From positions 1 to 18,539 of the forward strand of contig JAJSAC010000061.1 in NCBI GenBank assembly GCA_024274915.1: DNA of 18,539 nt, written 5' to 3'. A program made the position numbers and the translations under genes. Source of the DNA: Thermodesulfobacteriota bacterium. GTDB lineage: Bacteria; Thermosulfidibacterota; Thermosulfidibacteria; Thermosulfidibacterales; B14-G1. The notes beneath the pieces are model-generated. The model searched no databases. It worked only from the letters and a program-made list of their open reading frames with translations, and was not told where the DNA came from. Shown here piece by piece: positions 7,175 to 18,337 of this stretch. How positions within the stretch are numbered: the first letter of the stretch is position 1; every line of letters starts with the position of its first letter.

Positions 7175-8065
7175 TCAGTCCTCCAAGAGTACCTCTTTCA
7201 ACCTCTGGGCTATCTCCAGGGCTTGGTGGAAGGGCCTCTGCCAGATATTTCGACCAAAAATGAACCCCGTAGCTCCCGCCTCAACACAGAGTCGGGCCCT
7301 TCTAAGAAGCTCTTCATCGTCCACTCTACCACCACCGGCAATGATGACCGGGATCTTCCCTGCCGCCATCACCACCCTCTTCATGGCCTCTTCCAGGCCG
7401 ATCTCTTTCACTAGATCGTCGTAAGGAGAGGGTAACTCATGGGCCCTTTCCCTGTCCAAAATGGGAATGTTCACCTTCACCATGTCAGCCCCCAGCTCTA
7501 AAGCCACTCTGGCAGCATATTCAACAGCGTACAGGCTGTTCCTACCCCCCTTGGCCTCTATATCCCTACCCCGGGGATAAGCCCAAACAATGACGGGCAT
7601 ACCTAGCCGCTCCGCTTCCCGCCTCACCTCACAGAACTGGGCAAAGTCCCTGTCCTGGGAGGGAGAACCCACATAAAGGGTGTAACCCACGGCATCTGCC
7701 CCCAGGCGCACAGCGTCTTCCACGGTGGCCGTCAATGAGGAAAAGGCCTCTTCATCCGAAGGAACACTGGTCTTGCCATTGATCTTGAGAATGAGGGGCA
7801 CCAAACCAGCATAGTCTCTCATGTACTTCATGGCCAAACCGGGCTGAAAAACGATTCCGGAAAATCCTCCTTCCACCGCCACCTTAAGCTGGAACTCGGG
7901 ATCGGCGCTCTCAGGGTTGGCAAAGAAGTCCCTGGGACCATGTTCCAATCCCTGGTCTATGGGAAGAAACAAGGCCTTACCATTGCCCGGTCCGTGAAGA
8001 TACAACAGACGATAAAGCCTGGTCTTTTTACCAGCGCTTCCCGTTATCTCATCCAAAAAACCCAT
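7175..8065 (-). CDS. Class I (Schiff-base, DhnA/FbaB archaeal-type) fructose-bisphosphate aldolase family protein. The related ADH-synthase subfamily is not excluded.
   Basis: 296-aa TIM-barrel protein with the family-typical LILKINGKT and VKVNIPI segments, as recalled. Translationally coupled to the upstream PfkB kinase: the Shine-Dalgarno AAGGAGGTG lies inside the kinase's last codons. Confidence 0.55.
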
Positions 8066-8066
8066 T

Positions 8067-9014
8067 TCACACCTCCTTTACCACCGCCTCCGCCAGGAGA
8101 CGCTGAAAGTCATCTGCCCTGAGAAGCTCAGTACCAGGGGTCATGGCCGTAGCAGAACCTGCAGCCAACCCCCACCTGAAGGCCTCTTCAAAGCCCTTGC
8201 CCTGAAGCAAGGCCAGGAGAAAAGCCGCCAAAAAGGAATCACCCGCCCCCACTGCACTCACGGTCTTTACTTCGGGTGGAATGCCCAGATACACCTTCCC
8301 ACCAGCAACCAGGACAGCGTTCTTTTTGCCTCGGGTGACGGCCACCACCTCCACCCCCATGTCCACCACCTCTCTTGCAGCTTTTATGATCTCTTCGTCC
8401 CCGGCATTCCTCAACTCTCTCCCCACCAAGCGCTCCAGTTCGTAGGTGTTGGGCTTGATCATGTAGGGCCCAGCCTTCACCCCGTGTTTCAGGGCCTCGC
8501 CATCGGTGTCCAATACAGGCCTTATCCCCCTATCCCTGGCCTCTTCTATGAGATCCCTGTACACCGTTCGGGTGAGCCCTGGGGGAATGGACCCGGCAAA
8601 AACCATAAACTGGGCTGCGCAATACAATCCTCCCATCTTCCACAACCTCGTTCTAAGCCTATCCAGATCCTCCACCTTCACCCGGGGGCCATCAGCATTG
8701 ATCCTGGTCTGGGTACCCGTCTCAAGCTCACTGATGATGACGTTTATCCGGGTATCCCCTTCGATGGCTATAAAGGAAGTGAGAATCCCTTCCTCAGCCA
8801 AAAGGACGCTGAGGGCTCCTCCTTCATGCCCCCCTATAAACCCGTAAGCGATGGTGGCTCCACCCAAGGTGTTCACCACCCTGGAAACGTTGATCCCCTT
8901 CCCTCCCGGATCTTTACGCATACCCTTCATACGGATGACGTCATCCACCACCAGCTTATCCACCGATACCGTTAGGTCTAGAGAAGGATTGAGGGTAACT
9001 GTAGCTATCACCAT
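8067..9014 (-). CDS. PfkB-family carbohydrate kinase (1-phosphofructokinase / 6-phosphofructokinase-II / tagatose-6-P kinase group); start re-called to the second ATG
   Basis: N-terminal [10 protein letters not shown], PfkB signature 1 region GGKGINVS, signature 2 [11 protein letters not shown]. The second ATG (9014) has CACTGGAGGGGC as its Shine-Dalgarno; the first ATG has none. Confidence 0.8.
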
Positions 9015-9081
9015 GCCCCTCCAGTGCATTTTTTGAAAAACCTAAATGGGAATATAGAAAGCCGAGATAAGAGCATCAACC

Positions 9082-9750
9082 TCAAGCCAATAGAACAGCG
9101 ATGATTCCCGTGAGGAAGATACCGTCGAAGGTGCCTGCCCCCCCAATGGAAGCCACAGGTGCCCCTACTTCTCTGATCTTTTTGAGATTCATGATATCCG
9201 CCCCAATGAGTGTCCCCAGGGTTCCCGATACATAAGCCACAGGAGCAGACATATGGGGAGCCAACAGAAGGGCTACCAAAGCTGCCAAAATAGGGGGAAC
9301 GAAAAGGGGCACCACAATGCCCACACCCCTCACAGGCTTGGAGAGGCGATAGGTCACCAGGGAAACCACGGCCACCCCCAATAGGGGCTGCCACGCCAAG
9401 CCCATTCTGCTCCACAAATGGAGGGACAAAAGAACAGGAATGATGGCGCCGCCGAGATTCACCGCCAGCACCGTCTCCCTCCTCCTGGGCACCTTCACCC
9501 TATACGGCATCCCCCAGACCGAGAAGACCACCATATCCTCTTCTATGGGCTTACCCTCCAACCGAGCAATGGGAATATTGACAAAGCTCCCCGCGAGGGA
9601 GAGAAAAAGGAGGAAAAAGAGTTGCTGAGGAGGTATACCCAGCTTTTGAAAAGCAATGGTAAAGATACCCAGCTGAACCAGTATAAAGAGGAAGGTCAGG
9701 ACAAAGATGAAAAAGATGAAATAGACCAACATCAAAGGCAAAAAGAACAT
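9082..9750 (-). CDS. Polytopic integral membrane protein, DUF1614-like (function unknown)
   Basis: About 6 hydrophobic helices. The conserved-looking NLGGAIIPVLLS segment is recalled as DUF1614-like with moderate certainty. The ORF-track start is a TTG; the ATG at 9750 has GGAGGTGG 4-5 nt upstream. Confidence 0.6.
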   Translation of the reverse strand: MFFLPLMLVYFIFFIFVLTFLFILVQLGIFTIAFQKLGIPPQQLFFLLFLSLAGSFVNIPIARLEGKPIEEDMVVFSVWGMPYRVKVPRRRETVLAVNLGGAIIPVLLSLHLWSRMGLAWQPLLGVAVVSLVTYRLSKPVRGVGIVVPLFVPPILAALVALLLAPHMSAPVAYVSGTLGTLIGADIMNLKKIREVGAPVASIGGAGTFDGIFLTGIIAVLLA

Positions 9751-9821
9751 GACCACCTCCAATTGTCAAAGTAACCGAGCTTACCCCCTTTGTAAAGGAA
9801 TGGCTCCAAAGAACCCTCACC

Positions 9822-9856
9822 AGAAAAACGGAAGGCCCCTCTCTTTGAGAGGGGCC
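9822..9856 (-). terminator. Intrinsic terminator downstream of the cytochrome operon (minus strand): stem ggcccctctc/gagaggggcc, 3-4-nt loop, followed by TTCCGTTTTTCT
   Basis: 10-bp perfect GC-rich stem read from the sequence, with a T-rich tail on the minus strand immediately 3' of the hairpin, 23 nt after the cytochrome stop. Confidence 0.55.
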
Positions 9857-9878
9857 AAAAGCAAGGGGGAAGAGAGGG

Positions 9879-11930
9879 TCAAGAGGATGGACCTCCCTTC
9901 TTTTTCAGCAACTCCTCGATGGCGTCCAACTCTTTAGAAGCCTCATCGAAGAGGTCTTGGGCATAGCTGACATTATGGATAGGGGCCAAACCCCGAAGAA
10001 CCTTTTTGATCTTGAGGGCCTTGGAATAGTGGACCCTCACCTTGGCTTCGTCCTTGGGCCCGAGCCTTATCACCTCCAAGGTCCTTGTCACTTTCGCTAT
10101 CCTGGCCTTGATTTTATCAGACAGATCCCTGACCTGATCCTTCCACTCATCCAACGCCTCACCATAGCTCTCGTCACCGTCGTGGCAATCGATACAGGTC
10201 TGTCTCACCTCCCTGTAAGAGACCTTGACGGACTGGGTCACATCGTGGCAGTCGACACAACCCACATCCTCTTCCACCATAGGATTGGGTTCGCCCCTGG
10301 ACAGTCCTCTGATGGCACCATGGTAAAAGGCCTTCTCCAAAGAGTGGCACCTGACACACCGACGAGTGGCATCCTTCATCTGGTGGTGACACTTGAGGCA
10401 GTCCTCCCGTTCGAGAAGGGTTTCCCCATGCCTATCCACGGAGTGACACTTCATACAGGGGATCTTCTCCTTTTCGGAGTGAAGCTTATGGGGAAAGACG
10501 AGCTTCTGCTGGAAGTAGACATCCTCAGGCATACCCAGACGCCTGTGGCACATGGTGGCACAATAGCCATCGGGGGTTGCGATAATGGCTGGCCTAGCTG
10601 GAATATAAGACCCCTGGGCCTTGTCCACCTTGTCCAAATTGTCCACAGCGATTCTCAAGAGCTTGACAGCGTATTCCACATTGTGAACCCCATGCCCAGC
10701 AGCCACAAGTCTGTAATCGTAGGTAGCCTCACTCAACAACCGGGCGAGATCCCCTTTTAGCCTCCCCTTGGCCCGGGAAGACCTTCTGAGTCTCTGACCC
10801 ACGTACTTCTCCAAACGACCCAGGTACTTATCCCAGTCTCTAAGCAAGAGGTCATACCCCTCCTCATGGCAATGGACACAGGAGGCAGGCGACGAGACCC
10901 TGGTCACTTCACCCCTAAAGCCCTTGGGATTGGGAAGACCCCTAATATGACAACCGTCACAGGTGACCTGGGCAGCAAACATCCTGCTGGGCAAATCCCC
11001 CAAGCCCTTACCACCTACACCCATGTACAACGCCTTCTGGGCACTGTGGAAGCGAGTGTGACAGTCACTGCACTTCACGAGGAAAGTCTTGACCAGCCTG
11101 ACATCTCCATGCTTGATCTTGGTGTGACAAACAAAACAGTCAATACCTTGCTTGCTCACATGAATGTCATGGGTCACCTTGGGATCCCTGGGCTTCTTTC
11201 TCATAACATGACAGGTGTGACACTTTTCATGGGGAACAGAGCCATCGCCCTCCACTATCTCCACGTGACACTGATCACAGCTCACCCCCAACTTCAGATA
11301 CTCCTGGTGGCGGAACTTGAACCCGTGATACTGGATCACCTTGGTGGGTGGACCATGGCAGGAGGGGCAACCAGTCACCGACTGTCCCTTGCCAGCACCC
11401 ATGAAGTGACAGGTAAAACAGACCGTTTCTTCAACACTTATATGCATCCCCTGAACAATGTGGGAATGGCAACTGGAGCACCTCAACTTTACGCCTCTAA
11501 GGGGCCCACTGAGATGTTGACTATGATTAAAGACAGGCCTATCCTTGACCACCAATTTCTCCGTAAAAAGCTCCTCTTTACGGTGACAACCCGATTGGAG
11601 ACAGGTAGTAGTGGTCACGTTCGCCCTGGGATACATATCATAAACTCCCAGGTTATACTTGATCACTGTAAGGAACATTTTTAGAGGTATCCCAGGGTGA
11701 CATTTGTAGCACGAAACCGCGTTGTGGGTAGAAGTCTTCCAGTGCTTATAATATGGCTTCTCATAATGGCAGGACAGGCAGAACTCTGGATTCTTGGACC
11801 TAATGTACAGATAAAAATAAGAGACAATACTAAATATAATCAGCAGTCCTATAGCCAGCGTTAAGAAATCTTTTCTCCTACTCCGTCTCAGCCTCCTGCT
11901 ATTCCTCTCTCTCTCTCTCAAACCCTTCAC
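9879..11930 (-). CDS. Membrane-anchored multihaem c-type cytochrome (683 aa). It has 16 canonical CXXCH motifs plus one CX3CH and one CX4CH. An N-terminal NapC/NirT/NrfH-like signal-anchor module is fused to a long multihaem extension. GTG start overlaps the upstream b-cytochrome stop (GTGA).
   Basis: CXXCH motifs were counted directly: CLSCH, CYKCH, CSSCH, CFTCH, CPSCH, CDQCH, CHTCH, CFVCH, CSDCH, CDGCH, CVHCH, CMKCH, CLKCH, CVRCH, CVDCH and CIDCH. The two variants are CLQSGCH and CATMCH. The N-terminus is RRLRRSRRK followed by a hydrophobic helix, then CLSCH...[11 protein letters not shown], which is NapC/NrfH-like. Confidence 0.85.
11905..11919. repeat. Dinucleotide microsatellite (CT)7.5 on the plus strand, (GA)7.5 in the coding sense, inside codons 4-9 (RERERN) of the 16-haem cytochrome gene
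   Basis: ctctctctctctctc read directly. A repeat of more than 7 units is unusual in an otherwise repeat-poor coding region. Confidence 0.9.
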
Positions 11931-12871
11931 TTCTCCATCCCCCCTTCCTTCTTCATCTCCTTTCTCAGAATCTCCACGTACTCCAGAGGATGTTCCTCAA
12001 CCAACTCGTCTTCCGATATTTTCCCCGTGAAGATAACAGGGTTCATAGGAAACTTGGAGGGATTTAGATGGGCATTGTAAAAATGCCAGCACACTATGGC
12101 CAATGTGGCCAGAAGGGCCTCGTCGCTGTGGGCCACATGGGCTATATCCGACACATACTTCGGGAGTATTCTTAAGAAGATATTAGGGAACCAGAGTATG
12201 AGACCGGAACATATCATGATCACACATCCCCAGTAGACAGCCCAGTAGTCAAACTTCTCCACGTAGCTGAAGCGATCGAACTTAGGTTTCTCCTTTGTCT
12301 TACCCAGATAGTATTTGATCATTTGAACCGCGTCCATGGCATCTTTGGGAGTGGGAATGAGCTTTTTAAAGTTGTAACGGCCCTCTTTTGTGAAGATGAT
12401 GTAAAATAAATGGAAGAGAGAAACAAAGATCAGGCCTGTAGCTCCCATCCTATGAAGGGTCCTGCTGGCCTCTATGCCTCCCAATAGAGCCAAAAGCTTG
12501 CCAGATATGCCCACATTGTGGAACTTCAGAGGCATACCGGTTATAATAAGAACAATAACACTGATGGCCATAATAGCGTGTTGGATGCGAACCGAGAGGC
12601 TGAACCTCTCAAAGTACCTTACTTCCCGCTTTTTCTCAGCTTTTATGAGCCTCCTGATCTCTTTCAGAACTACCGATTCCACCTCCCTTTCAATCTGAAC
12701 CAGCTTGTCTTCCACCACCACATCAAAGGCCACAAATGCGATATTTTCTATCTCTTCTAAAATCTTCTCCCTTTGCTCTTCATCCCAGGAAGCTATTTCG
12801 TCTTTGATAACCTCATAAACCCTCTCCTTCACCGACTCAGTCAGCTTCTCTCGAATCTCCTGGGCCGCCAT
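11927..12871 (-). CDS. Di-haem b-type membrane cytochrome, HyaC/FdnI/PhsC-like (Ni/Fe-hydrogenase b-type cytochrome family, PF01292-like), with an 85-aa charged N-terminal cytoplasmic extension
   Basis: Core [11 protein letters not shown]...(TM1), RTLHRMG..FHLFY (TM2), [29 protein letters not shown]. Four helices with conserved His pairs. It is a paralog of the 13917-14600 and 16792-17418 genes. The ATG at 12871 shares one nucleotide with the upstream cytochrome c stop (TAATG). Confidence 0.85.
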
Positions 12872-13920
12872 TACCCCATGCCCTCCTTCTTCTCTTTGGT
12901 CTTTCTATAGAAATCCAAGAATATGTGGATAAAAATCACCCCCATGGTACCTGCGGTAAGAATGATAAAGAACTTGGCTACGTAATAGACAACCCCTGAA
13001 CTTTTGCTGTGCATATCCAAATGCATCTTCCCTTTGGCAAAGTTCTCGTTGGCCCCCGGATGACACTTGCCACAGGTTTTGGGAAGATTGGCCTTGTTCA
13101 CCGTGGACAAAGGATCGCTAGGAGCCCGGATGTTGTGAATCCCATGGCAACTAGAGCAGTTGGCAGCCCTCATCTCCCCAAATTCCAAGGCGATGCCGTG
13201 GAAACTCTCTTTATAGGTCTTGGCGGGGTCCAAAGAGACCTTAAACCGCCTCATCAGAGCCTGATCAGCATGGCACCTGGTACAGGTTTCAGGGACCTTC
13301 TGAGGGCTGACACTGGAGTAGGGCTTTCCTGGAGAGTACACGTCGTGCTTTCCGTGACAGTCTACACAGGCAGGGACAGCCATAACCCCCTTCTTCAGCA
13401 GTGCAACCCCGTGGACAGAGTTCTTATACTCCTGGTACGGCTTCCTGTGACACCTACCGCAGGTGGCAGGAACCTTCTTTTTGTTCACGGTGGAACGAGG
13501 GTTACTAGGCGAAAACACGCCGTGTCCCCCGTGACAATCCTGGCACCACGGCGCCCTAGGATCACCCGCCTTCACCTTTCCACCGTGAACACTGCCCCAA
13601 TATTTTTTATAAATAGAGTCAGGTTGGGGAATATTCTTTGGGGCTCCCTGGTAATGACATCGATCACAGTGAACCCTGCCTATCTTGAGCCCTTTATGGG
13701 GAATGACGGTGACATCAATGTGGCAGTCCTGACACTTGAGTCTCCTATGAACAGAGGCCCTCAAAAGTTTCCTGTCCACGTAGACCGAAACCTCGGCCCC
13801 AGAAGGAAGAACCTTTTTTAGCTCTGGCTTTTGGTGACAGATTATACATTTCCTTATAGCCCCTTCCCCAGAAAGGGGTACAAAAAAAAGAACGAGAAAG
13901 AAAACCAAAGCCCGCTTCAC
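12871..13920 (-). CDS. Nonahaem c-type cytochrome (about 349 aa) with a cleavable signal peptide, three tandem paired-CXXCH repeat units and a C-terminal transmembrane anchor; GTG start overlapping the upstream b-cytochrome stop (GTGA)
   Basis: Nine CXXCH motifs: CIICH, CQDCH, CDRCH, CQDCH, CGRCH, CVDCH, CTRCH, CSSCH and CGKCH. Signal peptide [21 protein letters not shown] after a GTG with GGAGGGGGAG Shine-Dalgarno. The ORF-track N-terminus (MVDRKDQ...) runs through the upstream gene and is rejected. The C-terminus [26 protein letters not shown] is followed by RKTKEKK. Three repeats of C.DCHG.H.V.SP..P.S.V....VP.TCG.CH fit the doubled-CXXCH domain (PF09699-like). Confidence 0.85.
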
Positions 13921-14600
13921 TTCTCCCCCTCCCCACCGAAGAGTTTCTCGTACTCTAGAGGATGCTCCTTTTCCAAACGCTCCACACTGATCTTTCCGGT
14001 CAACCATACGGGATCCATAGGGAAGTTCTCTCTGAGATGCATGTCATAAAGATGCCAAACCACAATCACCGTAAAGACAAGCAAGGCTTCATAACTGTGA
14101 AAGACATAAACAAAATCCAAAATCCCCTTGGAGAGAACCGCCACACTTTTGTTATGAAACCAAAGCATAATACCCGAGATCTCCATGCTCACCACCCCAC
14201 CCACCACCAACCAGTACTGGAACTTTTGGCGGTAGTTAAAGCGGCCAAAACGAGGCTTCTGCTGAGAGGCACCAAGGGTATAAGAAAGAGAAAGCTTAAA
14301 GTCCCTCCAGTCTTTCATGTTGGGTAGAAGCTCCAAAAACTGCTCGTGCCCTCTCCTGGTGAAGAGGACATAAAAAAAGTGGTACAAGGATACCACCAGA
14401 AGCAGCACCGCCCCTATCCTATGGATGGTCCCCCTCGCTTGGAAGCCACCCTCCAGCTCAATAAAAAACCGCCCCCAGGAAGTATCAGCGTACTTAAGGG
14501 CGAACCCAGAAACCAAAAGGAGCACCACGGCAATGAAAAGGATAAAGTGCTGGATCCTCTCGTTAAGGGTAAACCTCTCTACATAAAGCGGATCTGCCAT
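13917..14600 (-). CDS. Di-haem b-type membrane cytochrome, HyaC/FdnI/PhsC-like (paralog 2, 227 aa, no N-terminal extension)
   Basis: [12 protein letters not shown] (TM1), [63 protein letters not shown]. These are collinear with the 11927-12871 protein. GGAGG is 8 nt upstream of the ATG. Confidence 0.85.
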
Positions 14601-14620: not shown

Positions 14621-15412
14621 CTATTCGCCTTTGTCGGTCACCTTAGGGATCTCCTTCAGAAACGGCGTGAGTAGATCAAGGGGAATAGGGAAGATCAAGG
14701 TGGACGTGCTCTCAGAAGAGATCTCCATAAGGGTTTGGAGAAAACGGAGCTGAAGGGCCGCCGGGTGCTTGCCGATAATCTCGGCAGCCGATGCCAGGGT
14801 TTGGGCGGCCTGGTATTCTCCCTCGGCACTGATGATCTTGGCCCGCCTCTCCCTCTCAGCCTCAGCCTGACGGGCCATGGCCCTCTGCATTTCATGAGGC
14901 AGATCTATGTGCTTCAACTCCACCGTACTCACCTTAATCCCCCAAGGTTCCGTGTGCTCGTCCAGGATCCTCTGGAGCTCGGCATTGATGCGCTCCCTTT
15001 CCGAAAGGAGCTCGTCCAGTTCATGGTACCCCAGAACACTTCTCAAAGTGGTCTGGGCCAACTGAGAGGTGGCCGACATAAAGTCCTCCACCTCTATTAC
15101 GGCCTTGTCCGGGGCCACCACCCTAAAATAGACCACCGCATTGACCTTGATGGAGACGTTGTCCTTGGTGATGACGTCCTGGGGAGTCACATCCATAACT
15201 ACTGTTCTAAGGCTCACCTTGATCATACGATCTATCAGGGGGAGCAGGATGATAATACCCGGACCTTTAGTGGCCACGTACCTGCCCAGGCGAAAGATCA
15301 CCCCCCGCTCGTACTCCTTCAACACCCTGATGGTAGAGGAGAGGATGACAACCAAGATGACAAATATTATGAAGTAGGCGAATAAGTTCACAAAAGCTTT
15401 ATACAATACCAT
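14621..15412 (-). CDS. SPFH/band-7 (stomatin/slipin-like) membrane protein; start re-called to an ATG with a GGAGGT Shine-Dalgarno (the ORF-track start is a TTG)
   Basis: N-terminal transmembrane helix [14 protein letters not shown] followed by the SPFH core [18 protein letters not shown]...[27 protein letters not shown] and a C-terminal coiled coil rich in A/E/R ([24 protein letters not shown]). Confidence 0.85.
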
Positions 15413-15685
15413 TACCTTTACCTCCTGATCCGGTTTTTTATCCAATCCCCATTTTATTCAGCCGTTATATTTACAATGATAGATAAGTTTGCTATGTTTA
15501 CTCTTCTTTCTCTAAAAGCGGAGTACCAAGTCATCCACCTCAAACACTCAGTATAAAGACGTTAACGGACCATACCACCAGGGGAAATTGATGTCAACGG
15601 CGGCTACAGAGGCCCTTGACAGGGAAACGGAGACTATGTTACCGGCGGCACAAAGACGAACAAATCCCCACTGGAGGTTTTGCTG
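15413..15685. promoter_or_regulatory. Divergent intergenic region (273 nt) that should carry promoters for the SPFH-b-c-b-c operon (minus strand) and the c7-b pair (plus strand). AT-rich core at 15451-15515; TTGACA at 15616-15621; direct repeat GTYAACGG at 15561-15568 and 15592-15599; TTGATGTCAA at 15588-15597.
   Basis: Base composition and motifs read directly. No convincing -35/-10 pair with 17-nt spacing could be fixed by eye. Confidence 0.35.
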
Positions 15686-16795
15686 ATGAAGGGACAGAGA
15701 TGGAAATGGCTCTTCGTGGCTTTCATGTCCCTATCCTTTCTCCTCGTCCTCCCGCTCCACTTGCAAGCCATAGAAAACAGCGAATGTTTAGATTGCCACG
15801 GCGACCCCGACATGGTGAAAGAGTTACCCAGCGGAAAAACCATTTCCCTGTATGTGAATCCCAAGAAATTTGAAGCCTCTGTCCACGGCCAAAACGAGAT
15901 AGCCTGCACCGACTGCCACTCAGACATTACCGAACTGAACTACGACCAAGAGGTGCCCCACCCTGTCCCCGTAGCCTTCGTCAACTGTACTGATTGCCAT
16001 GATGAAGAAGGCACAGCCTACGAAGAGAGCGTCCACGCAGCAGCCAGGGTAAAAGGGGTTAAAGGAGCTCCCATCTGTTACAACTGCCACGACTTTCACT
16101 ACACCAAATACCTTTACGGCGACACCGTGGTGCAACTGGAAAACAAATTCTGCCTGAGATGCCACAACCCCAACAAGTACCACAAATGGCTGCCCCAAAA
16201 GAAAACCCACTTCGAGTATGTCATGTGTGCTGTATGCCACGCCCCAGACGTGGGAAGGCACATAAACCTGAGGCTTTATGACCTGATGTCAGAGAAGTTC
16301 CTCACCGGCGAGGAGATCGTCCAGAAGCTTGGGGTCACCTTTGATAATTTCATGGACAAGATGGACCTCAACAAAGACGGTGTACTGGATACAAAAGAAT
16401 TCCACCGGTTGGTAAGGGAGCTAAGAATAAACAAGGTGAGGGCCATCTTCTGGGGAGAAATGACAGACAACCTGAAACCCGAAGTCCACAAGGTTACCAA
16501 GGGAAGGGCTATCAAAAAGTGCGAAACCTGCCACTCTATCAAGTCCCCCTTTTTTGATAAGGTCTACCTCATCTTCACACATCCCACGGGAAAGGCCGAG
16601 CACTACCCCCTGAAGAGAAAGGTGCTCCAATCCTTCTACGTCACCCATTTCTACGCCATTGATGCCACCAGGGTAAAACTTCTAGACGTCATTGGTCTCC
16701 TCATAGTCCTGGGCGGAGTAGCCTTCGCCGGAGGCCACCTGACCCTCAGGATCCTTACCATACCCTTAAGGAGAAGAAGGAGGGAAGGGAGATGA
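15686..16795 (+). CDS. Heptahaem c-type cytochrome (370 aa) with signal peptide, an internal canonical EF-hand loop and a C-terminal transmembrane anchor; ATG start re-called (the ORF-track start at 15680 is TTG)
   Basis: Seven CXXCH motifs: CLDCH, CTDCH, CTDCH, CYNCH, CLRCH, CAVCH and CETCH. Signal peptide [33 protein letters not shown] is 7 nt upstream of the ATG. The C-terminus [26 protein letters not shown] is followed by RRRRREGR. The N-terminal module [34 protein letters not shown]....CTDCH is paralogous to the N-terminus of the nonahaem protein. Confidence 0.85.
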
Positions 16796-17418
16796 AACGC
16801 ATATACCTGCATCCCATACCCGTCAGGATCTGGCACTGGCTCCATGCCTTTGGCATAGCCTTCCTGGTCCTGAGTGGTATCCAGATCCGCTTCGCCGACT
16901 ACATCCTGGTGGTCCCCCTTAAAAAGGCCGTGGAACTTCACAACTTGGTGGGACTTATCGTGGCCGTAGATTATCTCCTGTGGTTCACCTTTTATGTGTT
17001 CACTGGAAGAATAAGAACCTACTTCCCCACGGCAGAGGAACTGATACTGGGAAGCATGCGCCAGGCCGTATATTACGGCTATGGCATCTTCAGGGGTGAC
17101 CCAAGCCCCTTCCACCCCACCCCGGAAAACAAGTTCAATCCCATGCAGAAGATGGCTTACCTCTTTATAATGCTCTTCTTCATCCCCATCCAGATCCTTA
17201 CAGGCTTCCTCCTATGGAACATCAAAGGCTACAGGGAAATTATCGATTTTATGGGAGGGGTCAAGATTGTGGACACCATCCACGTCCTTTTATTCTTCTT
17301 CTTCTTCGCCTTTATTATCGCCCATGCCTATCTGGCCACCCTGGGTCACACCCCCTGGGCCCATTTCAAAGCCATGATCACAGGGTGGGAAGAAGAGCCC
17401 GAAGAAGAACACTCGTAG
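16792..17418 (+). CDS. Di-haem b-type membrane cytochrome, HyaC/PhsC-like (paralog 3, 208 aa), ATGA-coupled to the heptahaem cytochrome
   Basis: [14 protein letters not shown] (TM1 with His), [44 protein letters not shown]. Four helices with His ligand candidates. Acidic C-terminal tail. Confidence 0.8.
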
Positions 17419-17482: not shown

Positions 17483-18337
17483 TCATTTGCTGGCGTTGGC
17501 CTCTTTGCCCGTCTCCTTATAAGGTACGGGAATATACTGGACAGAGGGCCTGGCCTGGGTGGGCTGGTCGTAGAGGTCCATAAGGGTGTAAACCTCAGAG
17601 GGTATTTCTGTGCTTACCTTCAACCCAAGGGCCTCCAAGTCCTCTTTGAAGAGGGGATAATCGTGGGTCCATCTTCCCTGGGAAAGCTCCTCGGCCACCT
17701 CTTCTGCTTTCCCTTGATCCATACCCTTCTCTATGAGAATCTGGGCAACTTTCTTTCTCACCTGTTGAAGGGCTTTTTCGGAAACATCAGCCATGATAAG
17801 GGTTTTATCCTCCACCTTATCCAAAGGCTTCTCTCTCACTGCCTTCACGATGGACGCCGCCGGAAAACCTCCCAACTGGGGATCTACAGGACCCAGGACG
17901 GCATTGGGATCCATAATGATCTCATCAGCCGCCAGGGCAATGAAAGTACCACCAGACATGGCAAAGTGGGGCACAATCACCGTCACCTTCCCCTTGTGCC
18001 TCACCAGAGCGGTGGCAATCTGTTCGGCAGCCAAAACCAGGCCTCCAGGGGTGTGGATAATGAGGTCAATGGGCATATCATCAGGGGTCAGCCTGACGGC
18101 CCTCAGAACCCTCTCCGAGTCCTCTATGTTGATGTACTTCATGAAGGGGATGCCCAAAAAGGAAAAACCCTCCTGGCGGTGGATCATGGTTATGACCCTG
18201 GAATTTCTCCTCTCTTCAATCTTCCGGATCGTCTTGAGTCGTGCTGCCTCCAACATGCGCTGCCTCATCCAAGGACTGAAGGAAAGCAAAATGAGTAGCA
18301 ACCAGAAAATATCGAAAAAACTGGGGCTATAGTGCAT
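17483..18337 (-). CDS. Membrane-anchored Clp-fold serine protease of the SDH/S49 (SppA/NfeD-like) type, 284 aa
   Basis: N-terminal transmembrane helix FFDIFWLLLILLSFSPW. ClpP/crotonase-fold core IDLIIHTPGGLVLAAEQIATALVRHKGKVTVIVPHFAMSGGTFIALAADEIIMDPNAVLGPVDP (the nucleophile Ser sits in AMSGG). The length and motif pattern fit the 'SDH family Clp fold serine proteinase' group as recalled. GAGGAGG Shine-Dalgarno upstream of the ATG. Confidence 0.7.
   Translation of the reverse strand: MHYSPSFFDIFWLLLILLSFSPWMRQRMLEAARLKTIRKIEERRNSRVITMIHRQEGFSFLGIPFMKYINIEDSERVLRAVRLTPDDMPIDLIIHTPGGLVLAAEQIATALVRHKGKVTVIVPHFAMSGGTFIALAADEIIMDPNAVLGPVDPQLGGFPAASIVKAVREKPLDKVEDKTLIMADVSEKALQQVRKKVAQILIEKGMDQGKAEEVAEELSQGRWTHDYPLFKEDLEALGLKVSTEIPSEVYTLMDLYDQPTQARPSVQYIPVPYKETGKEANASK

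Follow-up and report, generated by a model that had tools for sequence, protein, structure and literature searches.

A conserved, predicted EF-hand calcium-binding loop between haems 6 and 7 of a CbcA-type heptahaem cytochrome c

The gene at positions 15686-16795 (plus strand) of the stretch of DNA analysed here (the window, i.e. all 18,539 nucleotides of contig JAJSAC010000061.1 of a Thermodesulfobacteriota bacterium) is translated into a 369-residue cytochrome c with seven CxxCH haem motifs, and a single canonical EF-hand loop lies between the sixth and the seventh of them. The protein is orthologous to CbcA, the subunit that carries seven haems in CbcBA-type inner-membrane quinol:cytochrome c oxidoreductases. 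Judged from alignments, the loop belongs to the conserved features of the CbcA family and is not an oddity of the window gene. It probably acts as a constitutively occupied structural Ca2+ site in the non-haem insert of this family. The features that are central to this reading are as follows.

15686-16795, plus strand: cbcA-like gene for a 369-residue, predicted membrane-anchored heptahaem cytochrome c (seven CxxCH motifs, multihaem Pfam matches, match to PDB 28pb)
16226-16240, plus strand: haem-6 motif CAVCH, residues 181-185 (CxxCH scan and alignment)
16241-16519, plus strand: non-haem insert domain between haems 6 and 7, residues 186-278, 93 residues (AlphaFold2 model)
16340-16429, plus strand: predicted single EF-hand helix-loop-helix, residues 219-248 (EF-hand_1 alignment, models, family profile)
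16364-16399, plus strand: 12-residue predicted Ca2+-binding-type loop, residues 227-238 (PS00018 match and conservation of the ligand positions)
16520-16534, plus strand: haem-7 motif CETCH, residues 279-283 (invariant in the alignment)

The initial annotation of the window had placed a canonical EF-hand loop at 16364-16399 between haems 6 and 7, and both the coordinates and the match to the PROSITE pattern PS00018 were borne out. The regular expression matches residues 227-239, which is the sole match across the six frames of the window. The loop is composed of Asp at position 1, Asn at position 3, Asp at position 5, Gly at position 6, a hydrophobic residue at position 8, Asp at position 9 and Glu at position 12. 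When the sequence of the heptahaem protein was shuffled, the pattern occurred in 146 of 200,000 shuffles (7.3e-4). The Pfam model EF-hand_1 aligns to residues 219-245 with positions 2-28 of its 29 profile positions, at an expectation value (E) of 1e-4. The hydrophobic spacing of the sequence is canonical on both sides: F219, F222, M223 and M226 precede the loop, and F239, L242, V243 and L246 follow it.

For the 369-residue protein, 436 homologues were found, and conservation was counted in an alignment of 92 homologues with 35-80% identity. Position 1 of the loop is Asp in 91 of the 92, position 3 is Asn or Asp in all 92, position 5 is Asp or Asn in 88, and positions 8 (Ile, Leu, Val or Phe) and 12 (Glu) are kept in 92/92, so that the acidic ligand positions, whose conservation in orthologues had been proposed as a check, are retained. 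The full PS00018 pattern is matched by 77/92 homologues, and EF-hand_1 is found at E <= 0.01 in 40/92, with a best E of 1.2e-6. Ranked by weighted entropy among the 369 positions of the protein, loop positions 1, 3, 5, 8 and 12 fall at ranks 30-103 and positions 2, 4, 7, 10 and 11 at ranks 212-364. On this alignment, the alternation of conserved ligand positions and free positions corresponds to the pattern of a working EF-loop. The loop is also retained in 13-haem relatives and in CbcB-CbcA fusion proteins. The nearest relatives of the protein come from metagenome bins of Aquificota type and from other hydrothermal bins; many Desulfobulbales come next. Stabilisation of the fold at high temperature, which had been suggested as a role for the loop, was considered unlikely and was rejected as a thermophile-specific explanation, since Desulfobulbales and Geobacter relatives, from typically mesophilic lineages, keep the loop.

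Among PDB sequences, significant similarity was limited to 28pb_A ('Cytochrome c', 278 residues), which matches residues 33-303 with E = 1.4e-14 and with all seven CxxCH motifs aligned. This chain carries DTNNDNYISLAEL in register with the EF loop of the heptahaem protein, and the alignment places its loop, DTNNDNYISLAE, near chain residues 186-197. The crystal structure of CbcA is given in a 2026 review of Geobacter cytochromes (PMC13591261) as 'PDB 2BPB' and is credited to Antunes et al. 2026, and we infer that 28pb is this same entry, i.e. CbcA of Geobacter sulfurreducens (GSU0594). A profile of the haem 6-7 insert was built from 43 sequences and compared with PDB sequences, where calmodulin and calbindin rank first. 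The whole-sequence E of about 5e-13 for these matches is summed over repeats, and the individual hands reach an E of 0.03-1.

The AlphaFold2 model, which was computed with the 92-sequence alignment, has a mean predicted local distance difference test score (pLDDT) of 91 and a predicted template modelling score of 0.81. In the full model the insert consists of a strand (191-199), a helix (208-215), a second helix (222-226), the loop (227-235), the exiting helix (236-248), another strand (253-261) and a short helix with the invariant H268, and the gap between the two helices before the loop is six residues. The helical character ascribed to the flanking segments was supported by the model helices, with pLDDT values of 96-98 as means of 10-residue blocks over residues 221-250. 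The segment had also been considered as a possible haem-packing helix, and the model shows a helix-loop-helix instead of one continuous helix. When the insert was modelled alone, the same elements were obtained, with an entering helix at 219-226 and an exiting helix at 236-248. Residues 179 and 234 form isolated beta-bridges in the full model, and the bridge at 234 is lost in the insert-only model, from which residue 179 is absent. For this reason, loop position 8 (residue 234) probably bridges to V179, two residues before the haem-6 motif CAVCH. In the models, this bridge appears to take the place of the partner loop of a normal EF pair. A Foldseek search of the full model against the PDB library (to 2026-04-08; 28pb not among the returns) gave no significant match, the best being NrfB with E = 0.25, and the matches to calmodulin and centrin covered 42-49 aligned columns at E ~4.5. 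Likewise, no significant match was found between the insert and EF-hand pair folds, and the whole insert had no match among solved folds.

The assignment to CbcA is based on the seven haems, the C-terminal transmembrane helix with an invariant His, the overlapping gene for a dihaem cytochrome b, and the 28pb match. The further features on which it draws are listed here.

15686-15769, plus strand: signal peptide-like segment, residues 1-28, ending in LQA before IEN (model helix 4-20)
16676-16756, plus strand: C-terminal transmembrane helix, residues 331-357, followed by an Arg-rich tail (model helix)
16792-17418, plus strand: cbcB-like gene for a 208-residue dihaem cytochrome b, whose start overlaps the cbcA stop (ATGA) (Ni_hydr_CYTB, PhsC-like)

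The longest version of the open reading frame (ORF) starts with TTG at 15680, but ATG at 15686 is the likely start because of a GGAGG 8 nucleotides upstream. The CxxCH motifs start at residues 34, 74, 101, 131, 156, 181 (CAVCH) and 279 (CETCH), and multihaem Pfam families match the protein. Seven candidate distal His are invariant in the alignment of the heptahaem family, which fits bis-His ligation. At the N-terminus, A28 and N31 are near-invariant in the 92-homologue alignment, and the signal-like segment would be cleaved at residue 28. D334, G337 and H351 of the C-terminal transmembrane region are invariant in the same alignment, and His351 (16736-16738), near the cytoplasmic end of the helix, is also kept in 30 more distant homologues. 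The description of the product as a periplasmic heptahaem cytochrome therefore holds for its seven haem motifs but not for a freely periplasmic location, as the C-terminal transmembrane helix is present. On the model, the protein is membrane-anchored and faces the periplasm.

The genes cbcA and cbcB are co-translated. In 80 of 82 related loci, a gene for a CbcB homologue comes directly after cbcA, the other two being cut by contig ends, and the pair is also present on two contigs that were inspected directly. The product of 16792-17418 matches Pfam Ni_hydr_CYTB with E = 1.2e-23, and its closest NCBIfam model is the PhsC-like NF011582 (thiosulfate-reductase cytochrome b subunit) with 129 bits, which is below the equivalog cut-off. 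Four His (H15, H50, H164 and H178) are invariant across 80 CbcB homologues; the distance from H164 to H178, 14 residues, is the same as in FdnI.

In G. sulfurreducens, CbcA was described as a cytochrome c with seven haems and a membrane helix at its C-terminus, and CbcB as a cytochrome b (Joshi, Chan & Bond 2021, bioRxiv 10.1101/2021.04.15.440034). In that description, CbcB has three His and a His in the C-terminal domain of CbcA was proposed as a further ligand of CbcB haem b, in contrast to the four invariant His within CbcB in the window clade (Joshi et al., bioRxiv 10.1101/2021.04.15.440034). In the clade of the heptahaem gene, His351 may be a candidate for a fifth ligand or may belong to a quinol site. 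The window protein resembles Geobacter CbcA in its seven aligned CxxCH motifs, its C-terminal membrane anchor with the conserved His, the adjoining dihaem cytochrome b of the PhsC/Ni_hydr_CYTB type and, if 28pb is indeed Geobacter CbcA, the EF-type loop in register between haems 6 and 7. It differs in being distant in sequence and in having Aquificota-like metagenome-assembled genomes (MAGs) as its nearest relatives. A further difference is Glu258 (16457-16459), which lies in a G-E motif on strand 253-261 after the EF-hand. It is invariant in all 92 close homologues, whereas its counterpart in the 28pb chain is Met; Glu258 could form a salt bridge or serve as a second-shell ligand.

A structural Ca2+ site is the preferred reading because the loop offers the full ligand set with the bidentate Glu at position 12. 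One canonical EF-hand would form the core of the 93-residue insert, and one Ca2+ would be bound via D227, N229, D231, the V233 carbonyl, D235 (directly or mediated by water) and the bidentate E238. The site would be permanently occupied in the periplasm, since the Ca2+ level there varies with the environment and as a rule lies well above the affinities typical of EF-hands. The Ca2+ clamp would then fix and stiffen the insert against the haem-6 attachment segment through docking of the loop on V179, in the neighbourhood of haem 7 and the membrane anchor, and would thereby hold the geometry of haems 6 and 7 near the membrane. The role would be structural and not regulatory, since the open/closed switch of EF-hands requires a pair and is not available to a lone hand. 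This reasoning rests on established EF-hand chemistry.

Several observations weigh against a Ca2+ site. Gly at loop position 6 is present in just 49/92 homologues, and the EF-hand_1 score of 22.0 bits is below the curated cut-off of 25.4, with EF-hand_5 also missing its threshold (19.6 bits vs 25.9). The heptahaem protein has one PS00018 loop, with no partner hand and no EF-hand pair, and isolated EF-hands are often weak binders unless they are otherwise stabilised. In 9-10-haem relatives, the loop is reduced to 11 residues (D-x4-G-[LI]-D) and lacks the ligands of positions 3 and 5. Calcium or an EF-hand is mentioned neither in the CbcBA paper (bioRxiv 10.1101/2021.04.15.440034) nor in the 2026 Geobacter cytochrome review (PMC13591261).

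The moderate conservation of Gly6 and the sub-threshold Pfam score also favour an alternative to which a small chance is given, namely that the insert is a packing scaffold without Ca2+, or with Mg2+, Mn2+ or Fe2+, whose acidic residues would contribute to folding, hydrogen-bonding or surface charge. In the 9-10-haem relatives the helices persist despite the degenerate loop, which indicates that the scaffold can exist without the canonical site, and the loop is longer by 1-2 residues (13-14 residues) in three Desulfobulbaceae-type loci. However, the seven- and 13-haem clades conserve exactly the Ca2+-ligand positions, including the invariant Glu12, while the neighbouring positions drift, and this is hard to explain by packing alone. 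In addition, EF-hands that select Ca2+ over Mg2+ are characterised by a bidentate Glu at position 12. The degenerate 11-residue loops and the lengthened loops are natural variants that could be used as controls for Ca2+ binding.

Gating of inter-haem electron transfer or of partner binding by Ca2+ had also been suggested. As a regulatory Ca2+ sensor, the hand would control by its occupancy the electron outflow from haem 7/6 or the docking of PpcA- or CbcC-type acceptors. In its canonical geometry the loop matches those of sensor EF-hands, it appears in the models to adjoin the haem-6 segment, and EF-hand inserts regulate some respiratory enzymes of eukaryotes, among them NOX5/DUOX and external type II NADH dehydrogenases. 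Gating is nevertheless unlikely, because the site would be exposed to periplasmic, and hence environmental, Ca2+ levels: these are not kept homeostatically low, and a canonical loop would be saturated. The cooperative switch of a four-helix EF pair is unavailable to a single hand, and neither the CbcBA paper (10.1101/2021.04.15.440034) nor the 2026 review (PMC13591261) reports a dependence on Ca2+. A more speculative variant, which is regarded as very unlikely, is an ion sensor in which binding of Ca2+, Fe2+ or Mn2+ shifts the haem-6/7 potentials or the docking of partners, Fe2+ and Mn2+ being the product cations that would accumulate during metal respiration. If true, an unpaired hand on a haem-attachment strand would represent a new coupling of an EF-hand to a redox cofactor. 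Lastly, a chance match has next to no probability and was rejected on the basis of homologue conservation: PS00018 is short and degenerate with known false positives and the Pfam score is under its cut-off, but the shuffling frequency is low, homologues with as little as 35% identity retain the pattern, as does the distant 28pb chain, and the AlphaFold2 model forms the helix-loop-helix.

The predicted hand shares its 12-residue loop and canonical amphipathic flanking helices with calmodulin, calbindin D9k/D28k, S100 proteins and polcalcins, and about 45 residues superpose on calbindin D9k, S100A8 and a PDCD6 homologue at 2.8-3.3 Å with low Z. In contrast to canonical EF-hand proteins, it is single and without a four-helix bundle, it would be periplasmic within a beta-alpha-alpha-alpha-beta insert of a multihaem cytochrome, and the position-8 bridge between two loops is apparently swapped for one to the strand before haem 6. 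Single extracytoplasmic EF-hand-like structural Ca2+ sites occur in Slt35, a lytic transglycosylase of E. coli, and in the periplasmic galactose-binding protein. The heptahaem protein is similar to these in having one EF-type loop in an extracytoplasmic, non-EF host fold; it differs in its multihaem cytochrome host and in the full 12-residue canonical loop with both helices. Periplasmic c-type haem proteins with structurally or functionally important bound Ca2+ are known from the NrfA nitrite reductase and the bacterial cytochrome c peroxidase/MauG family. Their sites are not EF-hands and use discontinuous ligands near the catalytic haem or a domain interface, whereas the candidate site here is a contiguous helix-loop-helix in an electron-transfer subunit. 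Contexts of the Dx[DN]xDG motif were surveyed by Rigden et al. 2011 (PMC3123361), and they share with the present case the single loop in a non-EF, extracytoplasmic host; cytochromes and haem proteins are absent from the survey.

The family, its cytochrome b partner and the structure of one member are already known, and precomputed Pfam matches already mark EF-hand models on several homologues. Nevertheless, the conservation of the loop across the family appears to be under-reported. A survey of Desulfuromonadia cytochromes makes no mention of calcium or an EF-hand, and full-text literature searches found neither an EF-hand in multihaem, c-type or Geobacter cytochromes nor calcium in CbcA, although the CbcA structure paper was not covered by them and may describe the site. 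CbcBA sets the lowest redox potential for Geobacter respiration, and CbcBA-type complexes have been proposed as markers of extracellular electron transfer; the need for CbcBA in the respiration of low-potential extracellular acceptors was shown for G. sulfurreducens only (bioRxiv 10.1101/2021.04.15.440034). A conserved predicted metal-binding loop beside haems 6 and 7 would offer a mutable handle on the haem chain over the membrane subunit. It would also be a clean case of a single canonical EF-hand in a non-EF host fold outside the cytoplasm, which bears on the spread of Dx[DN]xDG-type loops between folds. The practical value is limited, given that the family is known, a Geobacter structure exists and the likeliest role is that of an ordinary structural Ca2+ site.

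The loop had initially been interpreted as a module-specific insertion because a nonahaem protein encoded in the same window, regarded as a paralogue, has no such loop. The absence of the loop was confirmed for this protein, which is encoded at 12871-14007 on the minus strand and carries nine CxxCH motifs. The paralogy and the insertion do not stand, since the similarity (about 31% identity to residues 33-186 of the heptahaem protein) is limited to the N-terminal haem core, and a paralogue-specific insertion was ruled out on this ground. The nonahaem gene adjoins a different, FdnI-like cytochrome b gene. From these comparisons, the nonahaem protein is best described as a distant relative and not as a paralogue that has lost or never gained the insert.

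The nonahaem gene belongs to a second, unrelated cytochrome cluster at 9879-14600 (minus strand). This cluster encodes a 683-residue protein with 16 CxxCH and two variant motifs and a NapC/NirT-like N-terminus, a 314-residue cytochrome b extended at its N-terminus by about 85 residues, the 378-residue nonahaem cytochrome with a C-terminal hydrophobic segment, and the 227-residue FdnI-like cytochrome b. Because 91 nucleotides of the nonahaem ORF coincide with the end of the cytochrome b gene upstream of it, the true start of the nonahaem gene probably lies further downstream.

With regard to regulation, no sigma-54 -24/-12 element was found in the intergenic region upstream of cbcA, the window-wide count of such elements being no higher than in shuffled sequence, and neither a sigma-54 activator nor a BccR regulator was found among the window ORFs scanned, which distinguishes the window from Geobacter CbcBA. 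Regulation of this kind does not belong to the structural features that define CbcA. In a Desulfocapsaceae locus, a gene for a PAS-containing, BccR-like sigma-54 activator lies about 1.5 kb from cbcAB (9272-10618 of that locus, minus strand). This suggests that the regulation of cbcAB differs between lineages.

A gene for an SPFH/Band 7 protein and a gene for an SDH-type ClpP-like serine protease with a weak NfeD1b_N match (14621-15445 and 17483-18337, both on the minus strand) flank cbcAB on the opposite strand. Genes of these two kinds usually occur side by side, so that cbcAB may represent an insertion between them. The order DeoC, PfkB, an ORF, cbcA and cbcB is common to the window and the Aquificota MAG contig WFSL01000010.1, in which this ORF is DUF1614. 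The window regions compared were 7175-9762 and 15686-17418, with the ORF at 9082-9762 as the putative counterpart of the DUF1614 ORF. Compared with the Aquificota contig, the window has the second cytochrome cluster (5.5 kb) as well as the SPFH gene between this ORF and cbcA, which suggests an insertion or rearrangement at this point.

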